This document shows positions 2,661 through 43,811 of a stretch of 43,811 nucleotides of DNA, piece after piece. This DNA comes from a virus (lineage: Duplodnaviria; Caudoviricetes): positions 1-43,811 of the IMG/VR virus record IMGVR_UViG_3300032270_000312; one strand, written 5' to 3'. Position numbers and translations under genes: made by a program. A model generated the notes under the pieces. That model was not told where the DNA came from, did not search any database, and saw nothing but the letters and a program-made list of their open reading frames with translations. Numbering within the stretch: the stretch's first letter is position 1; every line of letters begins with the position of its first letter.

Positions 2661-3986
2661 ATGGCACTTAAAAATAAAGCCAAGCAAAAGCCTGGCAGTA
2701 TGCGGTCTCGTCAGCAGGCAAAACTTAATAGCCAACGCACACAAAAGTCTCCAATTGAACCCGCACCTCGCACGGGTCCCCGGCGGCAGCTTCCGCAAAG
2801 CAGCCAAGGACAAAACCGTGTGGGTAACTCCAGTCAGCCGTGGGGTGAACGGCAAGGATCTGGACAACGTGTTGAACCCGTACGTGTTCGTGAAGTAGGT
2901 CGTCCTCAGCTTCCCGCTGGTCAAACTGTTCCTGAAAACCGGCGCCTGCCGGGGATGCAAGGCCCTCAGCCTGCGGCACGTCCTCAACGGCCTGGGACAA
3001 GCCGCCCTGCAACGGCAAGTCGCATGGAAGCCGCCCAAGCAAAAGCTGAGAGGGCTGCTCAAGGTACAAAGTCATCGTCTGTTCGCACTGGCAGGCCTGC
3101 AAAGCCGTCTCGATTTGGCGGAGCATTTGGCAAAGGTAATGCTGCTGCAATTGCACTTGGCATTATTAATGCTGCTGATGACTCTCGGTTGACGGATGCA
3201 CAACGCCGGAGGAAATACGAGGTTGTCAACCCTGAGCGTGGCAATGACCTGCTAACCAAACTGCAAGAAGGGCGTCTTGGCACTTCAAACAGTTCAGCTA
3301 AACCCAAGCCCTCTAAGCCTGGTTCTGACGGTCGCTACGTTCCTGGCAAAGAGAAGTCGAAGTTCACTGATTCCGAAGCCGCAAAGCCTGCAGAGAAGCA
3401 ACCTGCACGTCCTGTTCGTAGTGCTAGCCAGCAGCCCACTACGGCTGTCCGCAACCCCTCTCCCAAGGCCAAAGCCAGCACTCCCTCCAAGCCTGCACCC
3501 AAAGCAAGCGAGACCTACCGCGATGGCGGTAAGGGCTTGTACCAAGGCTCTAAGGAGTACCGAGACAAGGTTGGTGGCTCTGGTAACCCCCTGCTGAACC
3601 GTTTCCGCAAGGAAATGGGTCTTGATCAGGCCACGGGCCAACGGGCTGATGCTCCAACGGTTGCCAAAGAAGCACCCAAGCAAGAACCAAAGGCTGCTTC
3701 CAAGTCTGGTGGTGAAGGCGTCAAGGACAGCCTGAAGATCGATCAAGCCGCATCAAAAGCTGACGCTGGCCGTTACTTCAAAGACAAGCCGATGAGTCCG
3801 TCCAAAGGACAAACCGCCAACGGCACACGGCTTGCTCAGATGACACCTGATGACCGTCAACAACTGCGGGACTATGCCGACACCCTCAAAAAGCAAGGTG
3901 GTCCGGCGGCTCAACGTGAACTTGATCGCCTTAACAAGCAGTACTCCAAGTACGGCATGTCGTTTGGAAAGCTGAAAAGCGCGTAA
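2661..3986 (+). CDS. Long low-complexity basic protein of unknown function
   Basis: 441-aa ORF rich in R/K/P/Q/A/S/G filling the gap between HNH and terL. Confidence 0.65.
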   Translation: MALKNKAKQKPGSMRSRQQAKLNSQRTQKSPIEPAPRTGPRRQLPQSSQGQNRVGNSSQPWGERQGSGQRVEPVRVREVGRPQLPAGQTVPENRRLPGMQGPQPAARPQRPGTSRPATASRMEAAQAKAERAAQGTKSSSVRTGRPAKPSRFGGAFGKGNAAAIALGIINAADDSRLTDAQRRRKYEVVNPERGNDLLTKLQEGRLGTSNSSAKPKPSKPGSDGRYVPGKEKSKFTDSEAAKPAEKQPARPVRSASQQPTTAVRNPSPKAKASTPSKPAPKASETYRDGGKGLYQGSKEYRDKVGGSGNPLLNRFRKEMGLDQATGQRADAPTVAKEAPKQEPKAASKSGGEGVKDSLKIDQAASKADAGRYFKDKPMSPSKGQTANGTRLAQMTPDDRQQLRDYADTLKKQGGPAAQRELDRLNKQYSKYGMSFGKLKSA

Positions 3987-4077
3987 GCAAACTATCCACT
4001 TGGCTATACATCACGCCTAAGGCCCCTAGGAGCCCCTGGAAGGTCGTTATTTATCCACTCAGGTACATTCTATCATA

Positions 4078-5841
4078 ATGCCTATAAAACGCCGTACAGA
4101 GGCTCCTAGGGGGGTCTCCGTGATTGAGTCCCTACAGCAAGATTTCAAGCTCTTTCTACAGGCTCTCTGGGGGCAGTTAGATCTGCCCTCTCCAACCCGC
4201 GCTCAATACGCCATTGCAGATTACCTGCAGCACGGACCAAAGCGACTACAGATCCAAGCGTTCCGGGGTGTTGGTAAGTCCTGGATCACGGGAGCCTTTG
4301 TGTTGTGGACCCTGTTCAACAACCCAGAAAAGAAGATCATGATTATCTCCGCTTCCAAAGAGCGGGCAGATAACATGTCTATCTTTCTCCAGAAGCTAAT
4401 CATCGAGACCCCGTGGCTGGTGCACCTGCGTCCTAAAAGCGACGATGCCCGGTGGTCTCGGATTTCTTTTGATGTGAACTGTTCTCCGTCCCAGGCACCG
4501 TCCGTCAAATCAGTCGGCATTACGGGTCAGCTCACGGGTTCTCGTGCTGACCTGATGATTCTTGATGACGTGGAGGTGCCTGGTAACTCCATGACGGAGA
4601 TGATGCGAGAAAAGCTTCTTCAACTGTGTACAGAGGCCGAGTCGATCCTGACCCCAAAGGAAGACTCCCGCATCATGTACCTTGGTACACCCCAGACCAC
4701 CTTTACCATTTACCGCAAGCTGGCTGAACGGAACTACCGTCCGTTTGTGTGGCCTGCTCGATACCCACGCAAGCTGTCCCAATACGAAGGACTGATCGCC
4801 CCTCAACTTCAAGAGGACATCGATTCCGGTGCTGAAGCGTGGGGTATTACGGATCCAGACCGCTTCAGCCATGAAGACCTGCTGGAACGGGAAGCCGCTA
4901 TGGGTCGGAGCAACTTCATGCTCCAGTTCATGCTTGATACGAGTCTTAGTGATGCAGAAAAGTTCCCACTTAAGTTCCAAGACCTCATCGTTACCGCTGT
5001 TAACCCAACTCAAGCGCCGGATTCTGTTGTGTGGTGCAGTGATCCTCGTAATGTGCTCAAGGATCTGCCTACGGTTGGCTTACCGGGTGATTATTTCTAC
5101 TCCCCGATGCAGCTTCAGGGAGAGTGGAGTGCGTACGATGAAACGATATGCAGCGTTGACCCGTCAGGTCGAGGCACAGACGAAACAGCTGCCACCTACA
5201 TAAGCCAAAAGAACGGCTTCCTGTACGTCCACGAGATCCGTGCTTACAGAGACGGTTACTCCGACACCACCCTTCTTGACATCCTTAGAGGCTGCAAGAA
5301 GTACAACGTCACCAAGCTTGTCATCGAGACCAACTTTGGTGATGGCATCGTTGCAGAACTATTCAAGAAACACCTTCAACAAACCAAACAAAACATCGGT
5401 GTTGAAGAAGTCCGGGCTACCGTCCGTAAAGAAGAGCGCATCATCGATGCCCTAGAACCCATCATGAACCAACACCGCCTCATCGTTGATCGTGGTGTCG
5501 TGGAGTGGGATTACGCCTCTAATAAAGACGAAGCTCCAGAGAAACGACTCCTGTACATGCTGTTCTATCAGATGAGTCGGATGTGCCGGGAGAAATACGC
5601 CATCAAACACGACGACCGCCTGGACTCCCTTGCACAAGGCGTCAAGTACTTCACTGACGCCATGGGCATCTCAGCCATGGAGGTCGTCAAACAACGGAAG
5701 ATGGAGGAGTGGAGCGACATGCTGCAAGGGTTCATCGACGACCCCCAATGCGAGACCAACCACATCGTCCTTGGGATGTCTCTAGACCAAAAAAGACAAG
5801 CCAGAGGTAATTCCAAAAGTTCAGTCCCCACCTGGGTTTAA
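4078..5841 (+). CDS. terL: Terminase large subunit (T7 gp19-like)
   Basis: AFRGVGKS Walker A, TGSRADLMILDDVE Walker B, VDPSGRGTDE nuclease motif, HDDRLD. Alternative GTG start at 4120. Confidence 0.97.
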   Translation: MPIKRRTEAPRGVSVIESLQQDFKLFLQALWGQLDLPSPTRAQYAIADYLQHGPKRLQIQAFRGVGKSWITGAFVLWTLFNNPEKKIMIISASKERADNMSIFLQKLIIETPWLVHLRPKSDDARWSRISFDVNCSPSQAPSVKSVGITGQLTGSRADLMILDDVEVPGNSMTEMMREKLLQLCTEAESILTPKEDSRIMYLGTPQTTFTIYRKLAERNYRPFVWPARYPRKLSQYEGLIAPQLQEDIDSGAEAWGITDPDRFSHEDLLEREAAMGRSNFMLQFMLDTSLSDAEKFPLKFQDLIVTAVNPTQAPDSVVWCSDPRNVLKDLPTVGLPGDYFYSPMQLQGEWSAYDETICSVDPSGRGTDETAATYISQKNGFLYVHEIRAYRDGYSDTTLLDILRGCKKYNVTKLVIETNFGDGIVAELFKKHLQQTKQNIGVEEVRATVRKEERIIDALEPIMNQHRLIVDRGVVEWDYASNKDEAPEKRLLYMLFYQMSRMCREKYAIKHDDRLDSLAQGVKYFTDAMGISAMEVVKQRKMEEWSDMLQGFIDDPQCETNHIVLGMSLDQKRQARGNSKSSVPTWV

Positions 5842-5844
5842 GAC

Positions 5845-5864
5845 CGATCAGGGGTGTATACAGG
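5845..5864 (+). promoter_or_regulatory. Candidate phage RNAP promoter, copy 2 (CGATCAGGGGTGTATACAGG)
   Basis: Exact 20-bp match to 12408-12427; ends in TATAC plus a purine run like T7-type promoters. Confidence 0.65.
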
Positions 5865-5897
5865 AGGGATGGAAGGGTGGACCGGAACTCCTGTACG

Positions 5898-5935
5898 GGG
5901 GAAGACAAGTCAAACAAAGACAATCTTCCCCTTTT
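5898..5935 (+). terminator. Putative intrinsic terminator after terL
   Basis: GGGGAAGA/TCTTCCCC 8-bp stem with an 18-nt loop followed by TTTT. Confidence 0.5.
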
Positions 5936-6057
5936 ACTATGTCCCTGGGAATGGACATCTAAAAAGTACCACCTTTAACTCACTCCCTTCAAGAACTTAA
6001 TTCCGGATATACCGGATGTCCTGGAAGGGACATCACTTATATCACTAATTAGACAGT

Positions 6058-6708
6058 ATGTCTGCTAACCACCAAGCAACACTGATTCACATTACCCCTG
6101 ATGCAGAAGAACTTATTGCCTATATGGCAAGAGTATCTAATCCATCTAATCAAACCAACACTAAGACAAGTGCTAGGTTAATTAGATACCTTATTGAACA
6201 CAAACACTGGTCTCCCTTTGAGATGGTGAACATGTGTGTTCAAATAGAAACTACTCGGTCTATAGCAGCACAAATCCTTCGGCATCGGAGCTTTTCCTTT
6301 CAAGAGTTCTCCCAACGGTACGCACGAGTAGAAGAGATTCCCCGTAGTCCTTCCCTTCGGCGTCAAGATCAAAAGAACCGACAGAACAGTATTGACGATC
6401 TAGATGAAGTAATTAAGACTAACCTTGATTACGAGATCACTAAACACTTTGCAGCCGGTGTCCGTCTGTATCAACAGATGTTGGACTATGGAGTAGCCAA
6501 GGAGTGTGCAAGAGACGTGCTTCCCTTGGCAGCTCCAACCAAGCTGTACATGAATGGAACGATTCGGTCTTGGTTGCATTACTGCGACCTAAGGACTGCC
6601 CATGGGACACAGAGAGAACACGGACAGATAGCTGGTCAAGTACAAGACCTGCTGTATCAACACCTTCCTAATGTTTGTGAGGCAATGTGGGAAAAGAACT
6701 TAAGTTGA
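6058..6708 (+). CDS. thyX: Flavin-dependent thymidylate synthase
   Basis: RHRSFSFQEFSQR signature, HWSPFE, KECARDVLP, TQREH. Confidence 0.95.
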   Translation: MSANHQATLIHITPDAEELIAYMARVSNPSNQTNTKTSARLIRYLIEHKHWSPFEMVNMCVQIETTRSIAAQILRHRSFSFQEFSQRYARVEEIPRSPSLRRQDQKNRQNSIDDLDEVIKTNLDYEITKHFAAGVRLYQQMLDYGVAKECARDVLPLAAPTKLYMNGTIRSWLHYCDLRTAHGTQREHGQIAGQVQDLLYQHLPNVCEAMWEKNLS

Positions 6709-6974
6709 ATGAGTTCCACACAATGTATGTGACGTGGAAACAAGGCGTCCCTTGGTTTGATCACCTGCTGCTTGGTCTGCTGGTCTGGATTGAACGGTGG
6801 GTGATTGATCAGAGGGTAGACACAGAGCTTGATACTGCTATTGAGCAGTTTCATGCTGAAGCTAAAAAGGTGGAACCTGATTATGTGACTCCTGTATATA
6901 CAGAAACGCTCTCAGAGGGCTCTACAAGCCTCCCTGAGATGCGTTTAGCTGCTCCTTGGTACACTGACTCCTAA
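6687..6974 (+). CDS. Hypothetical protein
   Basis: ORF overlapping the thyX end; short hydrophobic stretch, acidic tail. Confidence 0.55.
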   Translation: MGKELKLNEFHTMYVTWKQGVPWFDHLLLGLLVWIERWVIDQRVDTELDTAIEQFHAEAKKVEPDYVTPVYTETLSEGSTSLPEMRLAAPWYTDS

Positions 6975-7001
6975 ATGTAATTTAAGGGGCCTTCCTGAGG
7001 C

Positions 7002-7184
7002 TTATAAATGGGTCTCAAGAATGAACGCCATCAGGTTGCTAATGCTTCGTCCTTCTTCGGTGCTTTTACTGACAAGTTGTTGGTAGGTTGACCACGACAA
7101 AGTGGCGGTGACACGGACTGGTTTGCGTGTCGCAATTGTTGAAAGAGCTTGCAGGTTGGCCTGGGCTCGTAAGACTTGGGTCAT
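7002..7184 (-). CDS. Ribbon-helix-helix (CopG/Arc-like) DNA-binding protein
   Basis: KPVRVTATLSWSTYQQLVSKSTEEGRSISNLMAFILE fits the beta-alpha-alpha RHH pattern with the GRS turn; start uncertain (ATG 7184 chosen). Confidence 0.75.
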   Translation of the reverse strand: MTQVLRAQANLQALSTIATRKPVRVTATLSWSTYQQLVSKSTEEGRSISNLMAFILETHL

Positions 7185-7711
7185 CAGCTCAATTACGGTT
7201 GAGTTGGTCACGGGGTCGGTGTTGCAAGCACGCGGCCCCACCTCAATAAGGTATCACAGTGATGTGAGTTGGTCTCAGAGTGCAGCAGATCTAGCTCACT
7301 TTCCGACAAAAATTTCTGAAGGCATATAAGCGGTGTAACAGGGCCGCAATCCCCCGTGCCGGGGGTGCTGAACGTGCTACTAGATCAATAATCTAGTCAC
7401 CAGAAGGCCCTGAAACACCAGATGTAGCGTGATTTTGGGGCTAATGACGCTAGATCTACCACGGAAACCGTAGGCCAGCACTGGACTAGTACAAAATTAT
7501 TAGGCTCGATCTGTAGCGCCTCCCTGTCGTGTGACAGTGCAGCAAGTTGCACAGTATCCGCTGCAGACTGCATCCACTTGTGGGCACAATTGCTGCAGAT
7601 CACATCAGTGGTCAGCACATCGACAGCAGAATAGGGGCACGCAGCCAGTCTCCGATGGGGCGAGACTGAGGCCATACAGCAGCCTGGCCAGCTGCAGCTG
7701 AGCCCACACCC

Positions 7712-7740
7712 TTTACCCATTGCATCCACTGTGCTACGCT
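7712..7740 (+). promoter_or_regulatory. Candidate host sigma70-type early promoter
   Basis: TTTACC-17 bp-TACGCT with extended -10 TG, upstream of the first early ORF and its AAGGAGG RBS. Confidence 0.55.
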
Positions 7741-7773
7741 ATCCACAACAACACCACCAAAGGAGGCGCATCC

Positions 7774-7896
7774 ATGCAAACCGACTCTGTACTCTTTAGC
7801 GACTCATTCGATCGTTACATTGAATGGGTCGAAGAAAAACAACTTGAAGAGATCGAAGCTGAGGCTAACGATCCAAACAACTACGAATTTGTTTAG
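7774..7896 (+). CDS. Small acidic early protein (40 aa)
   Basis: MQTDSVLFSDSFDRYIEWVEEKQLEEIEAEANDPNNYEFV; strong AAGGAGG RBS; below the ORF-track cutoff. Confidence 0.65.
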   Translation: MQTDSVLFSDSFDRYIEWVEEKQLEEIEAEANDPNNYEFV

Positions 7897-7921
7897 TTTT
7901 CACAATCACACAAATCCCAAA

Positions 7922-8131
7922 ATGTTTACATCCAATCGAATCCCACACGATTCCGGTATGTATCACGAACACATCTTCCACAACAATCAAGTTGTGGCCC
8001 AGGTCCTCAGCGATGGAGACAGTACCTACTGGTACGTGTTATCTGACAATCAGGCAATCTCTAGGGGTTACAAAACCGTGGCCGACGCCAAGGACATGTT
8101 ATTCCGTGTCCTAGAACATCGCTACGCTTAA
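7922..8131 (+). CDS. Early hypothetical protein
   Basis: ATG 7922 within the listed 7820-8131 frame. Confidence 0.6.
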   Translation: MFTSNRIPHDSGMYHEHIFHNNQVVAQVLSDGDSTYWYVLSDNQAISRGYKTVADAKDMLFRVLEHRYA

Positions 8132-8168
8132 TCCATCCACTCCGCTATCTAATCCACAAGGAGGCACC

Positions 8169-8510
8169 ATGCGTAAGATCGAACGGCTCATGAATGAAGC
8201 CATCACTGAGGGTCTCAACTGGTCGTTAGACAACACCCGAGTCGAGACAGACGGTGACAACATCTCCACCGTGTACCTTTACGGGAACAAGATTGCCCGC
8301 ATTGGCAACAACTTTGTGCAGCTTTTTGATGGCAAACATCAAACAGCAACCACCAAGTCGCGCCTCAATGCTATTTGTTGGGCGCATTGTGTGGACGGTG
8401 AGGGAGTATTTCAGAAGCGTGGTCAATGGTTTATTCGTGTTTGGAATAAAAGCACCAAACAGTTTGACACTGAAGATTTCTTCAGTGGCTACATGTTGGC
8501 TGACGCTTAG
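8169..8510 (+). CDS. Early hypothetical protein (cyanophage-type MRKIE... family)
   Basis: AAGGAGG RBS; VYLYGNKIA...TTKSRLNAI pattern. Confidence 0.75.
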   Translation: MRKIERLMNEAITEGLNWSLDNTRVETDGDNISTVYLYGNKIARIGNNFVQLFDGKHQTATTKSRLNAICWAHCVDGEGVFQKRGQWFIRVWNKSTKQFDTEDFFSGYMLADA

Positions 8511-8548
8511 TCAATCCATCCACTAACCTACGCAATCCATTCTCTGTC

Positions 8549-8695
8549 ATGTACTACGCAATTGTTAAATGGTCCCTGGAAGGTAACGAAATTCTCGACG
8601 GCTACGATAACTACGAAGATGCGGAAAGTGTGCTCGACGGATACTGTGACCGATACCCTAAAGGTTATATCGACATAGTGCCAATTGACACCTAA
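8549..8695 (+). CDS. Small acidic early protein (48 aa)
   Basis: MYYAIVKWSLEGNEILDGYDNYEDAESVLDGYCDRYPKGYIDIVPIDT. Confidence 0.6.
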   Translation: MYYAIVKWSLEGNEILDGYDNYEDAESVLDGYCDRYPKGYIDIVPIDT

Positions 8696-8706
8696 CGCTA
8701 ACAACT

Positions 8707-8733
8707 AACTCCGGCCACAAACCGGAGTTTTTT
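8707..8733 (+). terminator. Early-region intrinsic terminator
   Basis: AACTCCGG/CCGGAGTT stem followed by a T run. Confidence 0.7.
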
Positions 8734-8775
8734 AGTGCCCAAACCTTTCACAATCATCACAAGGACGCACGCCAT

Positions 8776-8946
8776 TTGTTGTATCAAATCAGCTTCGGCC
8801 TAAATCCATACAGTTATACAACTGCTATGGAGTACATCAACGCGCCTACATACAAGGACGCATGGTGTATTGCTGACGGAATGTGCCATCCCAATGAGAT
8901 GGTGCAAGATGTCATTCCTGTTACCAACCTGGACCAGTACGAATGA
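8776..8946 (+). CDS. Small hypothetical protein
   Basis: TTG start after AAGGA; stop overlaps the next ATG. Confidence 0.45.
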   Translation: MLYQISFGLNPYSYTTAMEYINAPTYKDAWCIADGMCHPNEMVQDVIPVTNLDQYE

Positions 8947-9074
8947 GGTTTAACCACCAGCAACTCAAGGACTTAGAGGATCAATTCCTCAAGGACTTCC
9001 ACCGTGGCCTTCTCACAAGGACACAACTGCTCAACATCATCCACCGTCTTGATCGTATTTCTCACCACCTATGA
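8943..9074 (+). CDS. Small hypothetical protein (43 aa)
   Basis: ATGA overlaps at both ends. Confidence 0.5.
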   Translation: MRFNHQQLKDLEDQFLKDFHRGLLTRTQLLNIIHRLDRISHHL

Positions 9075-9298
9075 CCGAACAAAAAAGCGAGCGTTGGCTT
9101 CTTCTCAACGCGATTGAATGTTGGTTGTATTACTTTCCCCAACATCAATGGGCGGCGCAGTACAAAGAACTCAGGGATGTGCTGCAGCAAGCAGTCACAA
9201 ACGAAACAGAGACTAAGGAAGAAGAACCGATAAAGGAAGAAATCCAGAAGCCTCAAGGCCGCAGGACTGCTGCCAAGGCTACAAATAAAAACACATGA
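9071..9298 (+). CDS. Hypothetical protein
   Basis: ATGA-coupled ORF. Confidence 0.6.
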   Translation: MTEQKSERWLLLNAIECWLYYFPQHQWAAQYKELRDVLQQAVTNETETKEEEPIKEEIQKPQGRRTAAKATNKNT

Positions 9299-9471
9299 AA
9301 GGTAATTGTATGACTTTTGCTGTTGTGCCAAAAGTGTATGAAATTACCTTGCGTTCTGGTACTAGATACATCCTAGCGCCCAGCTCAGAAGATGCAGCGT
9401 GGTCTGCTCTTGAGCTGTCCCAAGAACACAACGACCAGCTCATAAATGTGAAGCTTAGAGATGAATGGTAA
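9295..9471 (+). CDS. Small hypothetical protein
   Basis: YILAPSSEDAAWSALELS; ATGA-coupled; alternative ATG at 9310. Confidence 0.6.
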   Translation: MKGNCMTFAVVPKVYEITLRSGTRYILAPSSEDAAWSALELSQEHNDQLINVKLRDEW

Positions 9472-9769
9472 GCGGTACTATCCCAACAATTGGGACTCAT
9501 ACTACGAAGCACCTGACGACATGTTTGAGTCTCACACGTTTGAAGAGTTAATGACATGGAAGGTAGCCAATTGGGAGCTACCGTCTAGTGTCTGCTGCAT
9601 CATTCGTGTGAGCGATTGTAAGACTGGAGCAGTTAAAGAACACGTTTATCAGCGTCATTCAGCGGCTGAAAACAAAGTCGCACAGTTAATGAAAACGCCT
9701 GGTATTGAGTTCACTGTATGTGACCACGAAAGCATCCACCACCTCACCATGAAACCCACCAATGAGTGA
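9461..9769 (+). CDS. Cyanopodovirus-type early hypothetical protein
   Basis: YYPNNW...WKVANWELPSSVCCIIR. Confidence 0.7.
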   Translation: MNGKRYYPNNWDSYYEAPDDMFESHTFEELMTWKVANWELPSSVCCIIRVSDCKTGAVKEHVYQRHSAAENKVAQLMKTPGIEFTVCDHESIHHLTMKPTNE

Positions 9770-9902
9770 AACCACCTTTGAACGCCGGTTGCAGCAACTG
9801 ATCACGGACGTTATGCAACATCCGAATAGTGAAGAAATTCTAAGGCTAACCCAAGAGCAACTTCAGGATGATACGTTTATACTTGAAGATTCAGATACAT
9901 GA
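9762..9902 (+). CDS. Small hypothetical protein (46 aa)
   Basis: MSETTFERRLQQLITDVMQHPNSEEILRL...; overlaps neighbours. Confidence 0.6.
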   Translation: MSETTFERRLQQLITDVMQHPNSEEILRLTQEQLQDDTFILEDSDT

Positions 9903-10114
9903 CTCTTGTGTGTTTAGGCCCCTTGTACGTGGGCATTGATCAGGACTCCTTTTGGGATGTGTGGAAAGATTCCGCCGCACACCTTGTCCACTTGGGTAGG
10001 CTGCGACTAGAATGGGACTGTCGTCATCGATACGATGGATCCACTCAGAAGACAACTCACCAATCCGCAGATCGAACGACTGCTCAAGGTCATCGAAGCC
10101 ATTCGTGTCCTTGA
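9899..10114 (+). CDS. Hypothetical protein
   Basis: ATGA-coupled; overlaps the MarR-like gene by 80 nt. Confidence 0.4.
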   Translation: MTLVCLGPLYVGIDQDSFWDVWKDSAAHLVHLGRLRLEWDCRHRYDGSTQKTTHQSADRTTAQGHRSHSCP

Positions 10115-10397
10115 TCGAGAGATGCCAGCTCAAGTGGTGGCCACTTTCTTATACGTGGCTTCCCACAATGAGTGTCACAAGGTCGCCTTGGAGGAGGACT
10201 TAAACTTCCCAACCTCCAGCGGCAGCCGCAACACCGACTGGCTCTCTCGTTTTCACAGGCTTCGCAAGCCTGGCTTGAACCTGATTAGCAAGGAGGTAGA
10301 CCCACTCGATCGCCGCCGAACGATTCTCAAACTGACCCCAAAAGGGGAGCAGCTTGTTCACCACATCACCCAATTGCTGTATGGCGACAAGACTTGA
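10035..10397 (+). CDS. MarR-like winged-helix regulator
   Basis: SSGSRNTDWL recognition helix, LISKEVDPLDRRRTILKLTPKGEQ wing typical of MarR. Confidence 0.85.
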   Translation: MDPLRRQLTNPQIERLLKVIEAIRVLDREMPAQVVATFLYVASHNECHKVALEEDLNFPTSSGSRNTDWLSRFHRLRKPGLNLISKEVDPLDRRRTILKLTPKGEQLVHHITQLLYGDKT

Positions 10398-11322
10398 GAA
10401 ATTAATGGAGCGCAAGCCTGAAAAGTCCACCATCAAGACCTTTCAGCACGCGTTTCAATTTGCTCTTTCAACCCATGACAAGTGGTCTCTCAATCGAGAG
10501 AAGAACAGTCAAGGGCACAACGCAAGACGCTTCATGCAACAGCTGGAGAAGTTTTGTGAGAGCGACGCGATTCCGATTGCGTACATTGCTGACGACTTCA
10601 ACGTCAAGCAAATCATCAACGAGATGCAGGACCATTACAACTGGAGTGATTCCAGCTGCAACAAGTTCTGTTCATTCTTGAGCACCACCTTTAAGGAGTG
10701 CTTGGATCACGACATGCTTGCCAAGATGCCACGCATCCCACGCAAGGCAGAAACAATGGGCCGTACCGAATGGTACACCAAAGAGCATGTCGAGCAGTTG
10801 TGTGGGTACGCCAAGGAGACCGAGCGTCACAAGTTGGCGGATTTGATGTTGTTTGCGGCCTACACAGGGCTGCGTCAACAAGAACTTCGCAAGCTAAAGC
10901 GCCGGGACTTTGACTACAAACTCAACGTACCTTTGATCCACGTTGGTGGTACGAAGGACTCCATCACCAAGACGGGCAACTACCGAACCGTTCAATTGCC
11001 AGAGCGGATTCATGAACTTGCCGAGCGTTTGTGCTTCCACAAGGACGCAAACGATTTGATCTTTGGAGAGGATTGGATCAACAGACAACAGATCAACCGG
11101 GCATTTAATCCGGTGAAGTCTGTGGTCAAGACCCGTGTGGATGGCATCACCGATGCCCATGTGTTCCACACATTCCGCCACACCTACGGCACCTGGCGCA
11201 TCGCGGCAGGCTCTCCGATCATGGATGTTAAGTTCGCCATGGGTCACTCCACAGTGGCCATGACCGAGCGGTACGTCCATAACACAGGTGGGGTCAGCAC
11301 GCAAGGCGACGTGCGTATCTAG
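10381..11322 (+). CDS. int: Tyrosine recombinase / phage integrase
   Basis: Catalytic set present: YTGLRQQE (R), TKTG (K), HTFRH, MGHS, TERY (Y); start uncertain. Confidence 0.93.
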   Translation: MATRLEKLMERKPEKSTIKTFQHAFQFALSTHDKWSLNREKNSQGHNARRFMQQLEKFCESDAIPIAYIADDFNVKQIINEMQDHYNWSDSSCNKFCSFLSTTFKECLDHDMLAKMPRIPRKAETMGRTEWYTKEHVEQLCGYAKETERHKLADLMLFAAYTGLRQQELRKLKRRDFDYKLNVPLIHVGGTKDSITKTGNYRTVQLPERIHELAERLCFHKDANDLIFGEDWINRQQINRAFNPVKSVVKTRVDGITDAHVFHTFRHTYGTWRIAAGSPIMDVKFAMGHSTVAMTERYVHNTGGVSTQGDVRI

Positions 11323-11350
11323 GTCCGTCTAAAGCAGTGGAGATTTCGGC

Positions 11351-11359
11351 TGCTATCAT
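11351..11359 (+). promoter_or_regulatory. Candidate extended -10 promoter upstream of attP
   Basis: TGcTATCAT about 45 bp before the tRNA-like core. Confidence 0.45.
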
Positions 11360-11404
11360 GTAATTCCCAAGCGGTCTCAACGTTGAGAATCGCTGGAATC
11401 CCTT

Positions 11405-11445
11405 GGGAGCGTGCCGGAATTGGTAGACGGACTCGACTCAAAATC
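11405..11445 (+). other. attP core: 5' half of tRNA-Leu(CAA)
   Basis: GGGAGCGTGCCGGAATTGGTAGACGGACTCGACTCAAAATC gives acceptor 5' strand, D-arm (GGAATTGGTAGAC) and anticodon loop CT-CAA-AA; tRNA structure is lost right after; lies directly downstream of int. Confidence 0.85.
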
Positions 11446-11487
11446 ACAGTTCGTTAAGCATCCACCTCAGCATTAGACAGGCACTTT

Positions 11488-11510
11488 CGGGAGGGAAACC
11501 TCCCGTTTTT
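11488..11510 (+). terminator. Intrinsic terminator between attP and RNAP
   Basis: CGGGAGG-GAAA-CCTCCCG followed by TTTTT. Confidence 0.85.
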
Positions 11511-11595
11511 ATTAGGGTTTTCAATCTCTCCACTTGGGCACAAATTAGGCGCCCAGTCGAGTCCAATTCTTACACAATTCTTCACACTCACGCCT

Positions 11596-13935
11596 ATGCC
11601 CACACCGGCTCAGATCGATGAGCAGATCCGATTGGAACGCGATCAGATCCGACAAGGCCTCAAGCAGCTACGGGACAACACGCAACGATTGGAAGAAAAG
11701 GAGTACGCAAGTGCGTCGGTTTACGGCGTAGCGTCTATCCAGACTTTGATTCCGTTGGTGGTCAAACGGATCGAAGGAACCAACAACCGCATCCACGAAG
11801 GCAAGATTGGGGTTGCCTTTGCGGAGATCAAGCAGTACCTCACGGATGTGGAAGCGGAGGTGGCCGCTGCCATTGCTTGCAAGGTGACCTTCGACAAGGT
11901 GTTTGGAGTCAAGCCCGCCAGCTCCCAAATCCAGAACGTGACCGATGCCATCGGGGCGGCCTTGGAAGCGGAGTGCATGATGCGGCACTACGAGCGGGAG
12001 GTGCCGGGGTTGCTGCAGATCCTGCAAGACAACTACTGGCACCGTTCCATTGGAACTCACCAAAAGGTGAAGGTGATCAGCACCTTGATGAACCGCTACG
12101 ACGTGCCCCACTGGCAAGCCTGGGGCCGCGCCAACCGCATCAAGCTTGGGGGCTGGTTGCTGGATTGCGTCTGCAAGGCGACCAATTGGTTCATGACTGA
12201 CATGCGCCAAGAGGGACGCAAACGTCAAAACTACGTGGCTCCAACCCCTGAATTTCTAGAGATCAAGGATCAGGTAGTCGGGCAAGCCGAGCTGTTCAGC
12301 CCGTTGGCTTGGCCCATGCTGATCGAGCCGAACGATTGGAGCAGAGACCACTGTGGGGGCTACCTGCTAAATGAAGTCATGCGGGGCCACGACATGGTTC
12401 GCCGGGGCGATCAGGGGTGTATACAGGGAGAAACACCTATCGCCTTTCTGAACAAGATTCAGAAGGTGGCCTACCGCCTTAACCCGTTTATCGTTGGGGT
12501 GGCTGAGACGCTTCTGGAGAAGCAGATCTCAGTTGGCAAGTTTGTCCCTATTGTCGAATTACCTCTACCTCCCAAACCCGTAGACATTGCTGAGAATTAC
12601 GACTCTCGCAAGGACTACAGGCGAAGGGCAGCGGAGGTGAGAAACATCAACGCCCAAGCGTTTGACCGATCCGTGAGAACACGGATGACAATGAACGCTG
12701 TTCAGATCTTCAAGGAGCGGGAGAAGTTCTTTATTCCTTGGTCGTTTGACTATCGTGGAAGAGCTTTTCCAATTCCTGCATTTCTAACACCGCAGGATAC
12801 GGACTTCGGAAAGTCATTGCTTCGGTTTTACGAAGAGTCGTTCATCACTCCCGAAGCCGAAGAATGGTTAGCTTTTCAAGTGGCCACAACCTACGGTTTG
12901 GACAAGGCCCCCATGCAGGAACGGCAGGCATGGGTGGCTGAGAACAAGGAGTTGATCAAACGGGTAGCCAAAGATCCCATTGACAACTTGAGTGAATGGG
13001 AAGCAGCGGAAGAGCCTTGGCAATTCCTGGCTGCCTGTGAGGAGTATTACCACTGCATCCTTGAATGTGATCGTCAGCACACGGGGCTGATGGTCGCCAC
13101 AGATGCAACCTGCAGCGGTCTACAGATCCTCGCTGGATTGGCCCGAGATGCCTCTACAGCACGTCTTGTGAATGTCTTGCCTAGCGAGCGACCACAAGAT
13201 GCTTACAAGGTGATTGCAGAGGCTGCTAGGCCCCATGTACCTGCTTCTGTGCAGCCATACATGGACCGCAAAGTGACCAAACGAACGGTCATGACCATCC
13301 CCTACAACGCGAAGCCATACTCCAACCGTGGGTACATTCGTGAAGCGTTGGAGGAGAAGGGTGTTGAGGTTAAAAAGGACGATTTAACCGCGACCGTAAA
13401 GGCTGTACGAGACGCCATGAACAAGGTAGTCCCTGGGCCTATGGCTGTAATGAAATGGATCGAAGCCGAAGTGGCAGAAGCCATAAAGGCAGGAGCAAAG
13501 GTGCTGACGTGGAGGACGCCCTCTGGGTTTGTCGTCACACAAAAGCTAATGAAAAAAGATGTAGTTCGTATTCAGCTACAACTTCTTGGATCGTGTGAAA
13601 TCCATGCCGCTGTCGGGGATACCGACGAGGTGGACTTATCACACCATAAAAACGCAACAGCTCCCAACCTGATCCATTCTTTGGATGCGTCACTGCTTCA
13701 CCTGTCAACCCTTAGGTTCAATGCACCCATTGCATTGATCCACGACTCAGTGCTGTGCAGGGCTACTGACATGGGGATCCTGTCCACTTTGGTACGAGAG
13801 ACCTACATGCACCTGTTTGCAGAGCACGACTACTTGACTGATTGGGGAAACCAAATCGGTGCCCAATCAGACCCCCCGATCATCGGCGGCCTTGAGGCCG
13901 AATCCGTGATTGAATCCACCTACTTTTTCTGTTAA
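11596..13935 (+). CDS. T7-like single-subunit RNA polymerase
   Basis: DYRGR, DATCSGLQ (motif A), RKVTKRTVMTIPY (motif B), PNLIHSLDAS, IHDS (motif C), YFFC end. Confidence 0.98.
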   Translation: MPTPAQIDEQIRLERDQIRQGLKQLRDNTQRLEEKEYASASVYGVASIQTLIPLVVKRIEGTNNRIHEGKIGVAFAEIKQYLTDVEAEVAAAIACKVTFDKVFGVKPASSQIQNVTDAIGAALEAECMMRHYEREVPGLLQILQDNYWHRSIGTHQKVKVISTLMNRYDVPHWQAWGRANRIKLGGWLLDCVCKATNWFMTDMRQEGRKRQNYVAPTPEFLEIKDQVVGQAELFSPLAWPMLIEPNDWSRDHCGGYLLNEVMRGHDMVRRGDQGCIQGETPIAFLNKIQKVAYRLNPFIVGVAETLLEKQISVGKFVPIVELPLPPKPVDIAENYDSRKDYRRRAAEVRNINAQAFDRSVRTRMTMNAVQIFKEREKFFIPWSFDYRGRAFPIPAFLTPQDTDFGKSLLRFYEESFITPEAEEWLAFQVATTYGLDKAPMQERQAWVAENKELIKRVAKDPIDNLSEWEAAEEPWQFLAACEEYYHCILECDRQHTGLMVATDATCSGLQILAGLARDASTARLVNVLPSERPQDAYKVIAEAARPHVPASVQPYMDRKVTKRTVMTIPYNAKPYSNRGYIREALEEKGVEVKKDDLTATVKAVRDAMNKVVPGPMAVMKWIEAEVAEAIKAGAKVLTWRTPSGFVVTQKLMKKDVVRIQLQLLGSCEIHAAVGDTDEVDLSHHKNATAPNLIHSLDASLLHLSTLRFNAPIALIHDSVLCRATDMGILSTLVRETYMHLFAEHDYLTDWGNQIGAQSDPPIIGGLEAESVIESTYFFC
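12408..12427 (+). promoter_or_regulatory. Candidate phage RNAP promoter, copy 1, inside the RNAP gene
   Basis: Exact 20-bp match to 5845-5864; continues ...TATACAGGGAGA. Confidence 0.65.
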
Positions 13936-16591: not shown

Positions 16592-16691
16592 GTTAACCCG
16601 ACCAATTCCACCCAAACCTGAAGATGTCACTAGAGCCCAGTTCGTTGACAAAACCTATCGGGGATGGGCCGACACTCGTCTTCGATCTTGA
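16545..16691 (+). CDS. Small hypothetical protein bridging helicase and polymerase
   Basis: 48-aa ORF (RPIPPKPEDVTRAQFVDKTY) overlapping both neighbours. Confidence 0.4.
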   Translation: MKLKQQKTSTQQQISELTRPIPPKPEDVTRAQFVDKTYRGWADTRLRS

Positions 16692-17187
16692 GACAGACGG
16701 TTTTCTAAATGATGTTACCCGTGTCCACTGTCTGGCTATCTACGATGTCCAGGCGAACCAAATATTGGTTTACAACGACGAAGGGACTGAAGAACCAATT
16801 ATTTGTGGCATTGAACGTCTTGAAGACGCATCGTGCATTATTGGTCACAATATTATTGGTTACGACTGCCCTGTTATTCGTAAACTCTTTCCTTGGTTTT
16901 ATCCTAATGGTTTGGTTGTTGACACTTTAGTGTTGTCCAGGCTGTACCACACAGACATTTTGAAGATTGATACCAACAGGTCATGGAAGCATATGCCTGC
17001 TCAACTGTATGGTCGTCATTCTCTAGAAGCCTACGGATACCGGCTGGGTGAATACAAGGGAAACTTTTCCAAGACAGCTGACTGGAAAGAGTGGTCACAA
17101 GAGATGCAGGATTACTGCGTCCAAGACGTTGTTGTAACACACAAACTATGCAAACACTTCCACCCCTACCTGAGTGGGTTGCGCTAG
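16624..17187 (+). CDS. DNA polymerase 3'-5' exonuclease domain (separate ORF)
   Basis: FDLET (ExoI), HNIIGYD (ExoII), YCVQDV (ExoIII). Confidence 0.92.
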   Translation: MSLEPSSLTKPIGDGPTLVFDLETDGFLNDVTRVHCLAIYDVQANQILVYNDEGTEEPIICGIERLEDASCIIGHNIIGYDCPVIRKLFPWFYPNGLVVDTLVLSRLYHTDILKIDTNRSWKHMPAQLYGRHSLEAYGYRLGEYKGNFSKTADWKEWSQEMQDYCVQDVVVTHKLCKHFHPYLSGLR

Positions 17188-18416
17188 AGCACAGAGTTGC
17201 TCAGATTCTTACTGATCAAGAGATACATGGATGGTACTTTGATGAGCCTGCTGCATGGAAACTTGAATCGACTCTCAGACAAGAACTTGAAGGTCTTACT
17301 GAGTTACTACGAAACAGGCACCCTCTCGTTAAAGGATCAGAGTTCACTCCTAAACGAGCTAACAAAACCAGTGGCTATGTCGAAGGAGCTACTTTCTCTC
17401 GACTAAAGGAGTTCAATCCTACATCCAGAGATCACATTGCCTGGGTAATGGAGACCCACTACAAGTGGAAGCCAACCCAGTTCACTGATAAGGGTAAAGC
17501 CACAATTGATGAGGTAGTCCTAAAAGACATTGGTACGCCGATTGCTCTTCAGTTCTTCCGTTGTCTGGAGCTAACGAAACAGCTTGGCATGTTGTCGGAA
17601 GGCATCAATGCCTGGCTGAAGTTAGTAAGAGACAGCAGGATTCATCACCACTGCTCAGTGGCTACAAACACCCATCGGTGTGCACATAGGAAACCAAACC
17701 TTGCACAGGTGCCGAGTGACGCTGATTTTAGAAAGCTATTCCGCGCTAGCCCTGACATGTGCATGGTTGGTGCTGACCTCGCAGGGATTGAACTGCGACT
17801 GCTTGCCCATTATCTGGCTCGATACGATGGAGGCCGTTACGCAGATGTTCTTCTCAACGGTGACATTCACCAGGAGAACGCTGACAAGATAGGCATTAGT
17901 CGTCGTCTCGTTAAAACAGTTACTTACGCTTTTCTATACGGTGCTGGAGATCAAAAGATTGGGTTATCCTACGACCAAAGCCTTTCCCAGAACGAGGCGC
18001 GAAAGAAAGGCAAGGAAATCCGGCAAGCCTACATGGATGCTATTCCTGGTCTTGAGAAACTTGTTAATGCAACTAAGAAAGCTGCAGAGCGAGGTTATGT
18101 ACGCAGCATCGACGACAGGCGTATCAGCGTTGACTCGGGGCATAAGGCACTGAACTACCTGCTTCAGTCAGGAGCAGGTGTAGTAGCGAAGCGATGGATG
18201 GTACTGACGCATGAATCCATTATTCGCGCCGATATAAAAGCGAATCAACTGGCGTTCATTCACGACGAACTTCAGTTTGAAACGCAAGAACAATATGTAA
18301 ATGATCTCAAGTTCAGCTTACTCTGGGCAGCTCAGTCTGCTGGAGAGTATTACAACCTCAGGATCCCTATCGCAGCAGAAGCAAAGTCAGGATCCAACTG
18401 GTCAGAAGTGCACTAG
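17148..18416 (+). CDS. Family A DNA polymerase, polymerase domain (gp5-like)
   Basis: DLAGIELR (A), KTVTYAFLYG (B, Tyr at the T7 Y526-equivalent site), IHDE (C); start at ATG 17148 or reached by frameshift. Confidence 0.95.
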   Translation: MQTLPPLPEWVALEHRVAQILTDQEIHGWYFDEPAAWKLESTLRQELEGLTELLRNRHPLVKGSEFTPKRANKTSGYVEGATFSRLKEFNPTSRDHIAWVMETHYKWKPTQFTDKGKATIDEVVLKDIGTPIALQFFRCLELTKQLGMLSEGINAWLKLVRDSRIHHHCSVATNTHRCAHRKPNLAQVPSDADFRKLFRASPDMCMVGADLAGIELRLLAHYLARYDGGRYADVLLNGDIHQENADKIGISRRLVKTVTYAFLYGAGDQKIGLSYDQSLSQNEARKKGKEIRQAYMDAIPGLEKLVNATKKAAERGYVRSIDDRRISVDSGHKALNYLLQSGAGVVAKRWMVLTHESIIRADIKANQLAFIHDELQFETQEQYVNDLKFSLLWAAQSAGEYYNLRIPIAAEAKSGSNWSEVH

Positions 18417-18777
18417 TTATTGCTTTAGCTGTAAGACACATTTACCTTGTAATCACTTTAGTAAAAACAGATCCAGGCAGGATGGTCTTGCAAGACAATG
18501 CAAGAGCTGCTTAGCAAAGTACTACGCTATGCGAAAACTGCATAAGCTGCCTCACGGTCAACTGTGCCAAAGCTGTGGTGAAGAACCAGCAAAAGTTTGG
18601 GACCACGACCACAAGACCATGGAGCACCGTGGCTGGCTATGCAACAGATGCAACCTGGCACTAGGCCACGCAAAGGAAAGTATTGAACGTCTGGGCAATC
18701 TTATAAGATACCTATCCACTCACGTAGATGCCACCCAAAACCAAATCGAAGACTCAGTTAGCAAAGAAGCAGTTTGA
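18301..18777 (+). CDS. Endonuclease VII-type (His-Me) free-standing endonuclease
   Basis: CFSC...CKSC then CQSC...WDHDHKT..HRGWLCNRCNLALG; start uncertain. Confidence 0.8.
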   Translation: MISSSAYSGQLSLLESITTSGSLSQQKQSQDPTGQKCTSYCFSCKTHLPCNHFSKNRSRQDGLARQCKSCLAKYYAMRKLHKLPHGQLCQSCGEEPAKVWDHDHKTMEHRGWLCNRCNLALGHAKESIERLGNLIRYLSTHVDATQNQIEDSVSKEAV

Positions 18778-28499: not shown

Positions 28500-28538
28500 T
28501 TCTTTGTGATCAAGAGTTGGCTCGCTAACTCGCCTACG

Positions 28539-28564
28539 GGGACTCTTCGGAGTCCCTTTTTTTT
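28539..28564 (+). terminator. Post-capsid terminator (T7 Tphi position)
   Basis: GGGACTC-TTCG-GAGTCCC followed by T8; a second small hairpin lies at 28514-28531. Confidence 0.9.
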
Positions 28565-42385: not shown

Positions 42386-42799
42386 ATGAAACGAATCATC
42401 TACCAAAACGAGACCGGCGGAGTCTCCATCATCATCCCAACCGAGTCCGTCGAACTGGCTCTCAAGGATGTACCCGAAGGCGTGCCCTACGAGATCGTGG
42501 ACGAAGCCGACATCCCCAGCGACCGCACCTTCCGCAATGCCTGGGTCATGGGCGACTGCTGCGTGGAGCACGACCTTGATAAGTGCAAAGAGATCGGCCA
42601 CGACCATCGCCGCCAGCAACGCGCTGAGGAGTTCGCCCCCTACGACGAGGTGATCGCCAAGCAGATTCCTGGTGTTGACGCTGCTGAAGCTGAAGCTAAG
42701 CGGCAAGAGATCCGCGATAAGTACGCCTTGATCCAAGACGTGATTGAAGGCGCGTCTACCCCTGACGAAATCAAGACCGCCTTGGAGGCAAACCAATGA
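42386..42799 (+). CDS. Probable fibre assembly partner
   Basis: KDVP.G.PY.IV..DIP.DR.FRNAW plus RQQRAEEFAPYD...RQEIRD. Confidence 0.6.
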   Translation: MKRIIYQNETGGVSIIIPTESVELALKDVPEGVPYEIVDEADIPSDRTFRNAWVMGDCCVEHDLDKCKEIGHDHRRQQRAEEFAPYDEVIAKQIPGVDAAEAEAKRQEIRDKYALIQDVIEGASTPDEIKTALEANQ

Positions 42800-43395
42800 C
42801 GCTTAGGCTCGCAGGCTCGACATCTGGCTACACAGAAATTGACTGCCCCTCTGTGGGCGGGAACAACACACTGGTGCTTCCGACTGGTAATGGGTCCAGT
42901 GGGCAGTTCCTGCAAACCAACGGTAGCGGCACGCTGAGCTGGGCAGGTGGCGGGAAGATTCTGCAGGTGGTGCAGACGACAAAAACATCGGCCACGGCGT
43001 TTGCAAGCACGTCAACTTATCAGGATGTCTCTGGAATGTCGGTGACCATCACCCCCACCAGTTCCAGCAACAGGGTTTTAGTCACCTTTCAATGGAGTTC
43101 GCAGATGAACTCTTGGTACGGTGGCTATGGTGAGTTCAGGATTTTGCGTGGATCAACTGCTATAGGAGCTGAACCCTTTGCTGTTCAATACGCATTCAAC
43201 GCTGGATCGGGAGATAACTATGCCGACTTTGACACCTTCTCGATAACATTTTTAGATTCCCCGTCTACAACATCTGCAACAACTTACAAATTGCAAGCCA
43301 AAAACAGCAGCAGCCGGACCATTTGGTTCAACTCAGGCTACGACAGCGTTACACGAAATTGTTCTACCGTAACCGCAATGGAGGTGGCACAATGA
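42796..43395 (+). CDS. Short fibre tip-like protein
   Basis: GQFLQTNGSGTLSW linker, GKILQVVQ, ITPTSSSNRVLV, DSPSTTSATTYK, MEV. Confidence 0.7.
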   Translation: MTLRLAGSTSGYTEIDCPSVGGNNTLVLPTGNGSSGQFLQTNGSGTLSWAGGGKILQVVQTTKTSATAFASTSTYQDVSGMSVTITPTSSSNRVLVTFQWSSQMNSWYGGYGEFRILRGSTAIGAEPFAVQYAFNAGSGDNYADFDTFSITFLDSPSTTSATTYKLQAKNSSSRTIWFNSGYDSVTRNCSTVTAMEVAQ

Positions 43396-43718
43396 TCAGC
43401 ATTGCTGTTGCTCTTTGTGAGTTGGCGCCAGGCGCTAGTTGGTCCGTTGATGATGAGGACTATGCGACTTTAGTTTGGTGGTCCCCGGAGATTCCAAAGC
43501 CATCTTACGAAGCCGTTCAGGCAAAACTTGCCGAATTTGAGGCAGCGCAACCTCTCAAAGCAGCTCAAGCAGCCCGCGCCGCCGCTTACACCACCGAAGC
43601 CGACCCCTTGTTCTTCAAGGCGCAGCGCGGTGAAGCCACCATCGAGGAGTGGCAGGCCAAGGTTGCTGAGATCCGCAGCCGCTACCCGTACCCCGCCGCC
43701 CTGGAGGTGACCCCATGA
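43392..43718 (+). CDS. Probable fibre assembly partner
   Basis: LAPGASW...KPS...RAAAYTTEADPLFF...WQAKVAEIRSRYPYP. Confidence 0.6.
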   Translation: MISIAVALCELAPGASWSVDDEDYATLVWWSPEIPKPSYEAVQAKLAEFEAAQPLKAAQAARAAAYTTEADPLFFKAQRGEATIEEWQAKVAEIRSRYPYPAALEVTP

Positions 43719-43811
43719 GCACGCTATCTACAACCAACCTCAAGAACCCCAGCGCCAGCGGCAACAACATCGTCCTTGCATCAGACGGTAGCGCCACGAT
43801 TGCCACGCTCA
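43689..43811. repeat. Terminal overlap, identical to 1-123
   Basis: Exact match. Confidence 0.95.

Follow-up and report, generated by a model that had tools for sequence, protein, structure and literature searches.

Why would a phage keep the same 20 nucleotides (nt) at two places, once inside the gene for its RNA polymerase (RNAP) and once directly after the gene for its terminase large subunit (terL)? This question is raised by IMG/VR virus record IMGVR_UViG_3300032270_000312 (Duplodnaviria; Caudoviricetes), which we analyzed over its whole length of 43,811 nt (hereafter the window). By its gene content and sequence, the window is a circularly permuted T7-like cyanopodovirus, and the exact 20-mer CGATCAGGGGTGTATACAGG occurs in it at 5845-5864 and 12408-12427, both on the + strand. 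An initial annotation of this DNA had read the two copies as promoters of the phage's RNAP, and it had the exact repeat and its flanks (AGGAGGG and AGGGAGA) right. Based on the analyses below, we propose that the two 20-mers are very likely the promoters, and the only two, of the cyanophage's own RNAP, each spanning -15 to +5. The promoter reading itself gains support from three directions: the positions of the proven Syn5 promoters, the covariation of the two copies with each other, and the covariation of promoter bases with RNAP residues. The elements concerned are:

5845-5859, + strand: post-terL copy, predicted promoter -15 to -1 with predicted +1 at 5860; orthologous to the Syn5 promoter at 44797 and, in relatives, paired with the internal copy.
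12408-12422, + strand: RNAP-internal copy, predicted promoter -15 to -1 with predicted +1 at 12423; positional, end-to-end ortholog of the Syn5 promoter at 4929, with residue-base covariation.
11596-13935, + strand: T7-like single-subunit RNAP of 779 amino acids (PHROG 414, E = 1.9e-219; aligns to T7 RNAP chains).
4078-5841, + strand: terL (PHROG 38), directly upstream of the post-terL copy.

The post-terL copy begins 3 nt past the terL stop, and the internal copy runs from the third position of RNAP codon 271 to the first position of codon 278 (G-DQGCIQ-G). Allowing up to 3 mismatches, these are the 2 matches in the window, compared to 0 in 100 shuffles. The scan for degenerate copies that the initial annotation had proposed gave no third copy at up to 5 mismatches in the whole window; the 13-nt core at up to 3 mismatches has 7 further weak matches there, 6 of them on the - strand. 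Setting aside an exact 123-nt overlap of the window's ends, the 20-mer is the longest exact repeat in the window (the next is 16 nt), and in order-4 Markov simulations (n = 40) the longest repeat was 14-19 nt and never reached 20 nt. The shuffles and the simulations rule out a chance repeat. A sigma-70 scan found no site near either copy and fewer matches than in shuffles. In IMG/VR the exact 20-mer is present in 10 stretches, twice in two contigs.

The locus can be read against cyanophage Syn5, whose published RNAP promoter is ATTGGGCACCCGTAA (Zhu et al., PMC3950665). One copy of this 15-mer is at 4929 of the Syn5 genome, where the RNAP codons (GPLGTRKQG) align with GDQGC-IQG of the window, and its other copy is at 44797, 5 nt past the terL stop and before thyX. 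The two-copy Syn5 promoter of different sequence that the initial annotation had mentioned is thus borne out, and the layout is not a new one, since Syn5's two proven promoters occupy the same places. GCAAG follows both Syn5 copies, so that the Syn5 repeat is also exactly 20 nt long and stands in end-to-end register with that of the window. Because the two repeats align end to end, the start of transcription is most likely the A of ACAGG (GTAT/ACAGG, the slash marking the start; 5860 and 12423), with CGATCAGGGGTGTAT as -15 to -1. This moves the start about 2 nt upstream of the one first suggested, after TATAC, and leaves the promoter reading in place.

The pair recurs across the T7-like cyanophages examined. 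We compared 24 GenBank genomes (23 isolates and one fosmid) taken from cyanophage RNAP matches, with several near-duplicates and a few others left out, and added 155 IMG/VR loci. Paired identity at the two loci, the check on relatives that had been suggested at the outset, is found in 24 of 24 GenBank genomes, with 7, 8, 3, 2, 2, and 2 genomes at 0, 1, 2, 3, 4, and 5 mismatches, respectively; the post-terL copy lies at most 15 nt from the terL stop in 18 of them. Both regions are available in 68 genomes or contigs, 57 of which could be anchored: 55 with 5 mismatches or fewer, and 2 in which the anchor was wrong. In the other 11 the anchor failed. Across 50 distinct sites (the 2 mis-anchored included), a site differs from its own post-terL region by 1.66 mismatches on average and from foreign ones by 8.24 (permutation p ~1e-5), and its own region gives the best match in 44, ties counted, and the sole best match in 39. 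When the 13 contigs with a failed or wrong anchor were searched again without one, 9 had a pair with at most 2 mismatches, and two more had 3 and 4 mismatches. Among the 25 IMG/VR fragments searched, one includes the terL end. We did not find the pair in four of four non-cyanophage Autographiviridae (HTVC200P, CRP-361, S45-C18, and Percy; best 4-6 mismatches, equal to a reversed-sequence null), which is a small sample. Overall, the pair is retained across RNAP identities of 33% to 100%, even as its sequence changes. Ten deep-branching RNAPs (L157, L165, L166, L168, L169, L182, L183, L187, L194, and L196) are ~38% identical to that of the window, ~50% to that of Syn5 and lack the QG motif; this set still has the promoter pair, and most of its members have a AGTGGTGC-like hairpin.

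If the repeat is read by the phage polymerase, its bases should vary together with residues of that polymerase. From 173 anchored loci, 118 with a site, and 107 reaching the specificity loop, we obtained 72 RNAPs less than 95% identical to one another and scored 9,765 residue-base pairs, excluding the promoter's own codons. The five strongest corrected couplings (residue/base) are 668/-8, 210/-5, 660/-10, 205/-5, and 178/-4, and they fall in two parts of the protein:

12127-12240, + strand: RNAP residue 178 and residues 201-215 (about T7 229-243, the intercalating hairpin region), co-varying with promoter bases -4 and -5.
13558-13605, + strand: RNAP specificity loop, residues 655-670, co-varying with -11 to -8.

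The top couplings match the T7 specificity loop (739-770) and the T7 hairpin at -5. In an alignment to T7 RNAP, window residues 658, 660, 666, 668, and 670 correspond to T7 746, 748, 754, 756, and 758; T7 loop residues R746, N748, R756, and Q758 read the promoter (PMC11880802) and the intercalating hairpin (232-242) stacks at -5 (PMC11617373). The report that describes the loop read-out also gives a rule for T7-like phages in which 748D goes with -11C and 748K with -11G (PMC11880802), and in our predicted register we find D with C in 9 of 9 and K with G in 6 of 9.

Tabulated over the 61 RNAPs that are more than 45% identical to that of the window, the couplings resemble a code. Arg or Lys at residue 210 goes with T at -5 (30/30) and Thr or Ser with C (31/31). 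Residue 178 is Arg with G at -4 in 47 of 47, and with other residues the base is never G (14/14). At residue 668, Glu or Asp goes with G at -8 (9/9), Lys or Val with A (19/20), Gln or Asn with T (16/16), and Arg or His with C (14/16). Asp or Glu at 660 accompanies -11C (40/41), and Arg at 666 accompanies -9C (49/50). On phylogenetically independent pairs, taken from a FastTree tree built without the coupled regions, 8-11 pairs change the same way and ~0 the opposite way, with a median p of 0.001-0.008 among the tests listed.

Given that one copy of the site is translated, the same rules can be followed at synonymous positions and on the non-coding copy. The Ile codon at -2 to +1 is ATA in 60 of 61 RNAP genes, compared to 305 of 1,645 elsewhere, and the Pro codons at -11 to -9 are CCC with R666 (31/31) and CCG with other residues (4/4). 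On the non-coding copy in 39 genomes, the rules for residues 210, 178, and 666 each hold in 39 of 39 and that for 668 in 36 of the 38 it covers; Asp or Glu at 660 goes with -11C in 21 of 24. RNAP residues 272-274 rank 44, 52, and 10 of 676 in variability. As judged from these sequence patterns, the constraint acts on the DNA and not on the encoded peptide. With rules that extend to synonymous positions and the non-coding copy, and with residues 272-274 variable, we propose that the promoter sits in a tolerant loop of the polymerase and drives the codons there. It had been suggested that promoter specificity must co-evolve with the polymerase's own coding sequence. The covariation is mainly with the specificity loop and the intercalating hairpin, and the codons under the promoter appear to encode a tolerant, variable loop that adapts to the promoter.

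A close relative illustrates a probable change of specificity. Most of contig L016 aligns to the window at about 87-94% identity (terL 99%, RNAP 93%), and both of its copies read CGATCCCACCCGTAT, with 6 of 15 positions changed relative to the window. The two RNAPs have 56 amino-acid differences, with 12 falling in 201-215, 8 in 655-670, and 3 in the codons under the promoter. In codons 201-216, the identity of the window to L016 is 40%, compared to 83% for the more distant L020, and this segment looks like a short recombination patch. L016 and the window are thus separated by a recent switch of both copies together with the coupled residues. The 61 RNAPs have 45 different -12 to -4 cores, and between RNAPs that are 91-95% identical as many as 8 of the 9 core bases differ (range 0-8). 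Since the main promoter lies between the hairpin and loop codons, with a single further copy needing to change along with it, short patches may give rise to new specificities. We tentatively suggest, as an idea that we hold short of an even chance, that T7-like cyanophages carry a self-contained, fast-switching specificity cassette that is spread by recombination and insulated from co-infecting or integrated relatives, that these phages form a natural library of dozens of mutually orthogonal RNAP-promoter pairs that can be read off the sequence, and that an undescribed conserved hairpin signal starts the post-terL transcript. Selection for insulation would be the putative driving force.

Two alternatives to this account concern the site itself. 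One would keep both copies as RNAP promoters and place the start 1-2 nt downstream (TATA/CAGG or TATAC/AGG), as several non-coding copies that read GTATAGGGG or GTATAAGGG and resemble T7 TATA/GGG would allow, and as would suit residue 668, which couples to -8 instead of -9. However, the codon register with Syn5 is gap-free and the Syn5 +1 is published, residue 660 couples to -10/-11 as the published residue-base rule has it, the copies agree at +1 in all distinct pairs (1.0) and fall to 0.7 at +2/+3, and a hairpin after terL pairs from the predicted +1; we consider the downstream start unlikely. The other would have no promoter at all, with the repeat a gene-conversion relic or the site of another phage protein and the couplings contacts inside the polymerase. 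The motif does encode variable residues (272-275), which makes protein-internal coevolution formally possible, but the synonymous positions and the non-coding copy, where the couplings hold, rule it out as their source. Moreover, the coupled residues are known promoter-contact elements, the orthologous Syn5 sites are proven promoters, and the pair is kept from 33% to 100% RNAP identity despite sequence turnover, which leaves this reading very improbable.

Several observations weigh against the two-promoter reading that we prefer. Initiation is proven in Syn5 alone, whose RNAP is 38% identical. Two of the 13 re-searched, deep-branching contigs are without a convincing pair (L188, 5 mismatches; L190, 6 mismatches and off position), and four GenBank pairs differ at 4-5 of 20 positions (7B11-B, S-B28, DSL-LC07, and NATL1A-7). 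The residue classes used in the independent-pair tests were picked after the table was seen. The coupling of residue 668 to -8 is shifted by one base from the -9/-10 published for the T7-like position 756, so the +1 could be off by one. Cyanopodoviruses have separate middle and late expression classes (PMC7885011), which one promoter alone does not explain, and a terminator-like hairpin stands behind the capsid gene (28538-28557). Lastly, the metatranscriptome contigs are uninformative on start sites: three runs contain 6-10% of the sequence words, in low-depth contigs unable to show a start.

With the two copies as promoters, a simple programme can be put forward. Host RNAP would transcribe the early region and so give rise to the phage RNAP, which would then bind the internal copy through residues 660, 666, 668, and 670 (bases -11 to -8) and residues 178, 205, and 210 (-4 and -5), and from there transcribe 37 kb of replication, structural, and packaging genes. 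From the post-terL copy it would start a transcript with a 5' hairpin that runs into thyX and the right genome end, where this copy may have a further role in replication or packaging. The internal transcript is without the first 275 RNAP codons and so would not encode full RNAP, as the initial annotation had reasoned in proposing that there is no positive feedback. The lack of feedback, though, is not established by this: if the DNA is circular or concatemeric, the post-terL copy faces the RNAP gene, which lies 5.7 kb downstream, and a T7 stem-loop terminator did not obviously stop Syn5 RNAP in vitro (PMC3950665). Terminator-like hairpins lie between the post-terL copy and the RNAP gene at 8707-8729 and 11488-11505.

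Three elements follow the predicted start in the post-terL copy:

5860-5894, + strand: hairpin 1, its 5' arm beginning at the predicted +1, with loop motif AAGGGTGGA at 5873-5881 (fold, conserved loop, compensatory pairs).
5897-5935, + strand: hairpin 2, terminator-like with a short U tail (fold; a similar hairpin and U run in most relatives' predicted folds).
6058-6708, + strand: thyX thymidylate synthase (PHROG 85), the first gene past the post-terL copy, 198 nt after the +1.

In the window alone the fold z-score is modest (-1.8 to -2.0). The loop motif, as AAGGGTGGA or AGTGGTGC with close variants included, is present in 47 of 48 distinct relatives. Cognate arms of hairpin 1 form 6.4 of 8 Watson-Crick pairs and swapped arms 5.3 (p ~5e-5), and in nine equal-length hairpins from the 48 every one of the 72 cells pairs, and 6 of 8 positions have changed on both sides; the window and L016 differ by one compensated pair. 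A control against the RNAP-internal copy is weak (7.1 compared to 6.4 pairs of 8, with G-U allowed), and we therefore rely on the swapped-arm test and the pair tables. Rfam 15 has no match for the post-terL hairpins at the gathering threshold (0 in the window), and over 5800-6100 gives two matches, both with E > 1 and outside the hairpins. Hairpin 2 was not reported by a terminator scan. Nearly the same sequence as the terminator-like hairpin at 28538-28557, which has a long U run and stands after the major capsid gene in the position of T7 T-phi, forms hairpin 2 after terL in S-SBP1 and S-RIP2.

The post-terL copy is a candidate for transcribing thyX. In RNA-seq of S-SBP1 the right-end thyX falls in the middle class, as does talC at the same locus of P-SSP7 (PMC7885011), and a second phage promoter at this place would explain middle timing despite a right-end position. 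By eye, the first open reading frame (ORF) after the post-terL copy is thyX-like in 11 of the 24 GenBank genomes and another ORF in the rest. The copy and hairpin 1 are kept whichever gene follows, and this, together with the near-universal loop motif and the terminator-like hairpin between +1 and thyX, favors a different emphasis in which the post-terL copy acts mainly at the level of DNA, in replication priming or transcription-coupled packaging, with hairpin 1 and its loop as the signal and thyX expression secondary. The T7 right-end promoter after gene 19 (phi-OR) offers an analogy for such a role in replication or packaging. Our literature search gave no supporting paper for the T7 packaging link; the middle timing of thyX and talC suits a plain expression role, and Syn5 RNAP passed a T7 stem-loop terminator. 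Expression and DNA-level roles are not exclusive, and we regard a mainly DNA-level function as a serious possibility, somewhat below even.

The surrounding genome fits a cyanopodovirus. Besides RNAP it encodes SSB, primase/helicase, DNA polymerase, psbA, capsid and tail proteins, terL, thyX, a MarR-like regulator, and an integrase, and the RNAP stop overlaps the start of the SSB gene. The best GenBank RNAP matches are all cyanopodoviruses, at 36-75% identity (68-75% to S-SBP1 (75%), S-RIP2, S-CBP1, and S-CBP4; 60% to P-SSP7; 38% to Syn5), which confirms an RNAP of the cyanophage group. The 123-nt end overlap (1-123 and 43689-43811), within a tail-region gene, is most likely the assembly overlap of a circularly permuted genome, and the physical genome ends are probably near 7000-7800. 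Between the integrase and RNAP genes, the stretch at 11410-11446 reads like the 5' part of a tRNA-Leu gene, and we take it to be probably the core of attP; ARAGORN found no complete tRNA. The hairpin at 11488-11505, a strong one, follows this stretch. Repeats containing TCCACT cluster in the early region (7573, 7725, 8136, 8519, 9987, 10040, and 11529), next to the MarR-like gene and immediately upstream of RNAP, and the loop of hairpin 1, GGGTGGAC, resembles this motif. The DNA polymerase is represented by two overlapping ORFs, one for the exonuclease part (16624-17187) and one for the polymerase part (17091-18416); an endonuclease VII-like ORF (18301-18777) comes next, and 18215-18708 is absent or replaced in relatives L013, L015, and L016. 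Two tail-fibre-like ORFs (27-644 and 42796-43395) are related to each other and both match small PHROG families. Contigs from the RNA runs join 642 back to 26 and skip 274-558 and 3763-4021, which suggests variable or tandem forms in the population. In S-CBP42 (L139), the terL match is broken by one TGA and continues in a second piece.

These results bear on earlier attempts to find cyanophage promoters. PMC11880802 lists 18 Syn5-like promoters in 9 records, the true Syn5 sites included; its sites for S-CBP1, S-B28, and P-SSP7 differ from the pairs found here, some of which its lists of unclassified repeats may include. In a screen of phage polymerases, the RNAPs of P-SSP7 and S-CBP42 were tested with predicted sequences other than the paired sites, 8 of 26 enzymes were active, all 16 with low similarity to the T7 DNA-binding domain were inactive, and promoter prediction was named as the limiting step (PMC11475235); we infer that the P-SSP7 and S-CBP42 enzymes belong to this inactive set. 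With the positional rule, a promoter and a start site can be predicted in each T7-like cyanophage examined, among them P-SSP7, S-TIP37, and S-SBP1, and the course of transcription in an abundant phage group becomes open to direct tests. The rule may also account for thyX and talC being expressed out of order, in the middle class, and the residue-base table can serve as a hypothesis in the design of orthogonal polymerases related to Syn5 RNAP. The searchable literature, which has few subscription papers, contains neither a group-wide pair nor a residue-base code that we could find, and PMC6834552, PMC10134795, PMC9692554, PMC13029058, and 10.1101/410191 have nothing on a group-wide pair. Within that coverage, there seems to be no earlier description of the pairing across the group, the residue-base code, the recent switch, or the hairpin.

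The two-promoter layout is already known from Syn5, and the window is a new sequence variant of a Syn5-type (P60-like) system. As in Syn5, there are two copies only, one in RNAP at aligned codons and one just after terL and before thyX. The copies are identical over 20 nt (-15 to +5), the second lies about 37-40 kb downstream of the internal one, and a hairpin begins at +1 after it; from the internal to the post-terL +1, on the + strand, the window has 37,125 nt, and 'over 37 kb' is published for Syn5. The sequences differ. The window has CGATCAGGGGTGTAT followed by ACAGG, with a predicted +1 A where Syn5 has G, and it shares with the Syn5 promoter little beyond GTA at -4 to -2 and the bases at +2 to +5; close relatives of the window such as L016 share ACCCGTA with Syn5. 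The RNAPs are 38% identical, and the loop residues equivalent to T7 746, 748, 756, and 758 are R, Q, E, and H in the window and E, K, R, and K in Syn5; the hairpin loop is AAGGGTGGA in the window and AGTGGTGC in Syn5. The Syn5 promoters are proven, those of the window predicted.

The likeness to T7 at the right end is one of position: both have a phage promoter, a predicted one in the window, directly after the terminase large subunit gene that faces the right end, as phi-OR does, but in the window it precedes thyX, or another gene in relatives, and begins a conserved hairpin. T7-like phages have many promoters (18 copies are quoted for T7; PMC11880802), none of them needed inside gene 1, whereas the window has two, with a consensus unrelated to the many-copy TAATA...CACTATA type of T7. 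The loop read-out is nevertheless T7-like, since bases around -11 to -7 co-vary with the equivalents of 748, 756, and 758, the loop positions that hold most of the coupling in the T7-like code as well (PMC11880802). To that code the window's group adds couplings at the equivalent of 754 (-9), at the intercalating hairpin (-5), and at residue 178 (-4), and its 756 equivalent couples to -8.

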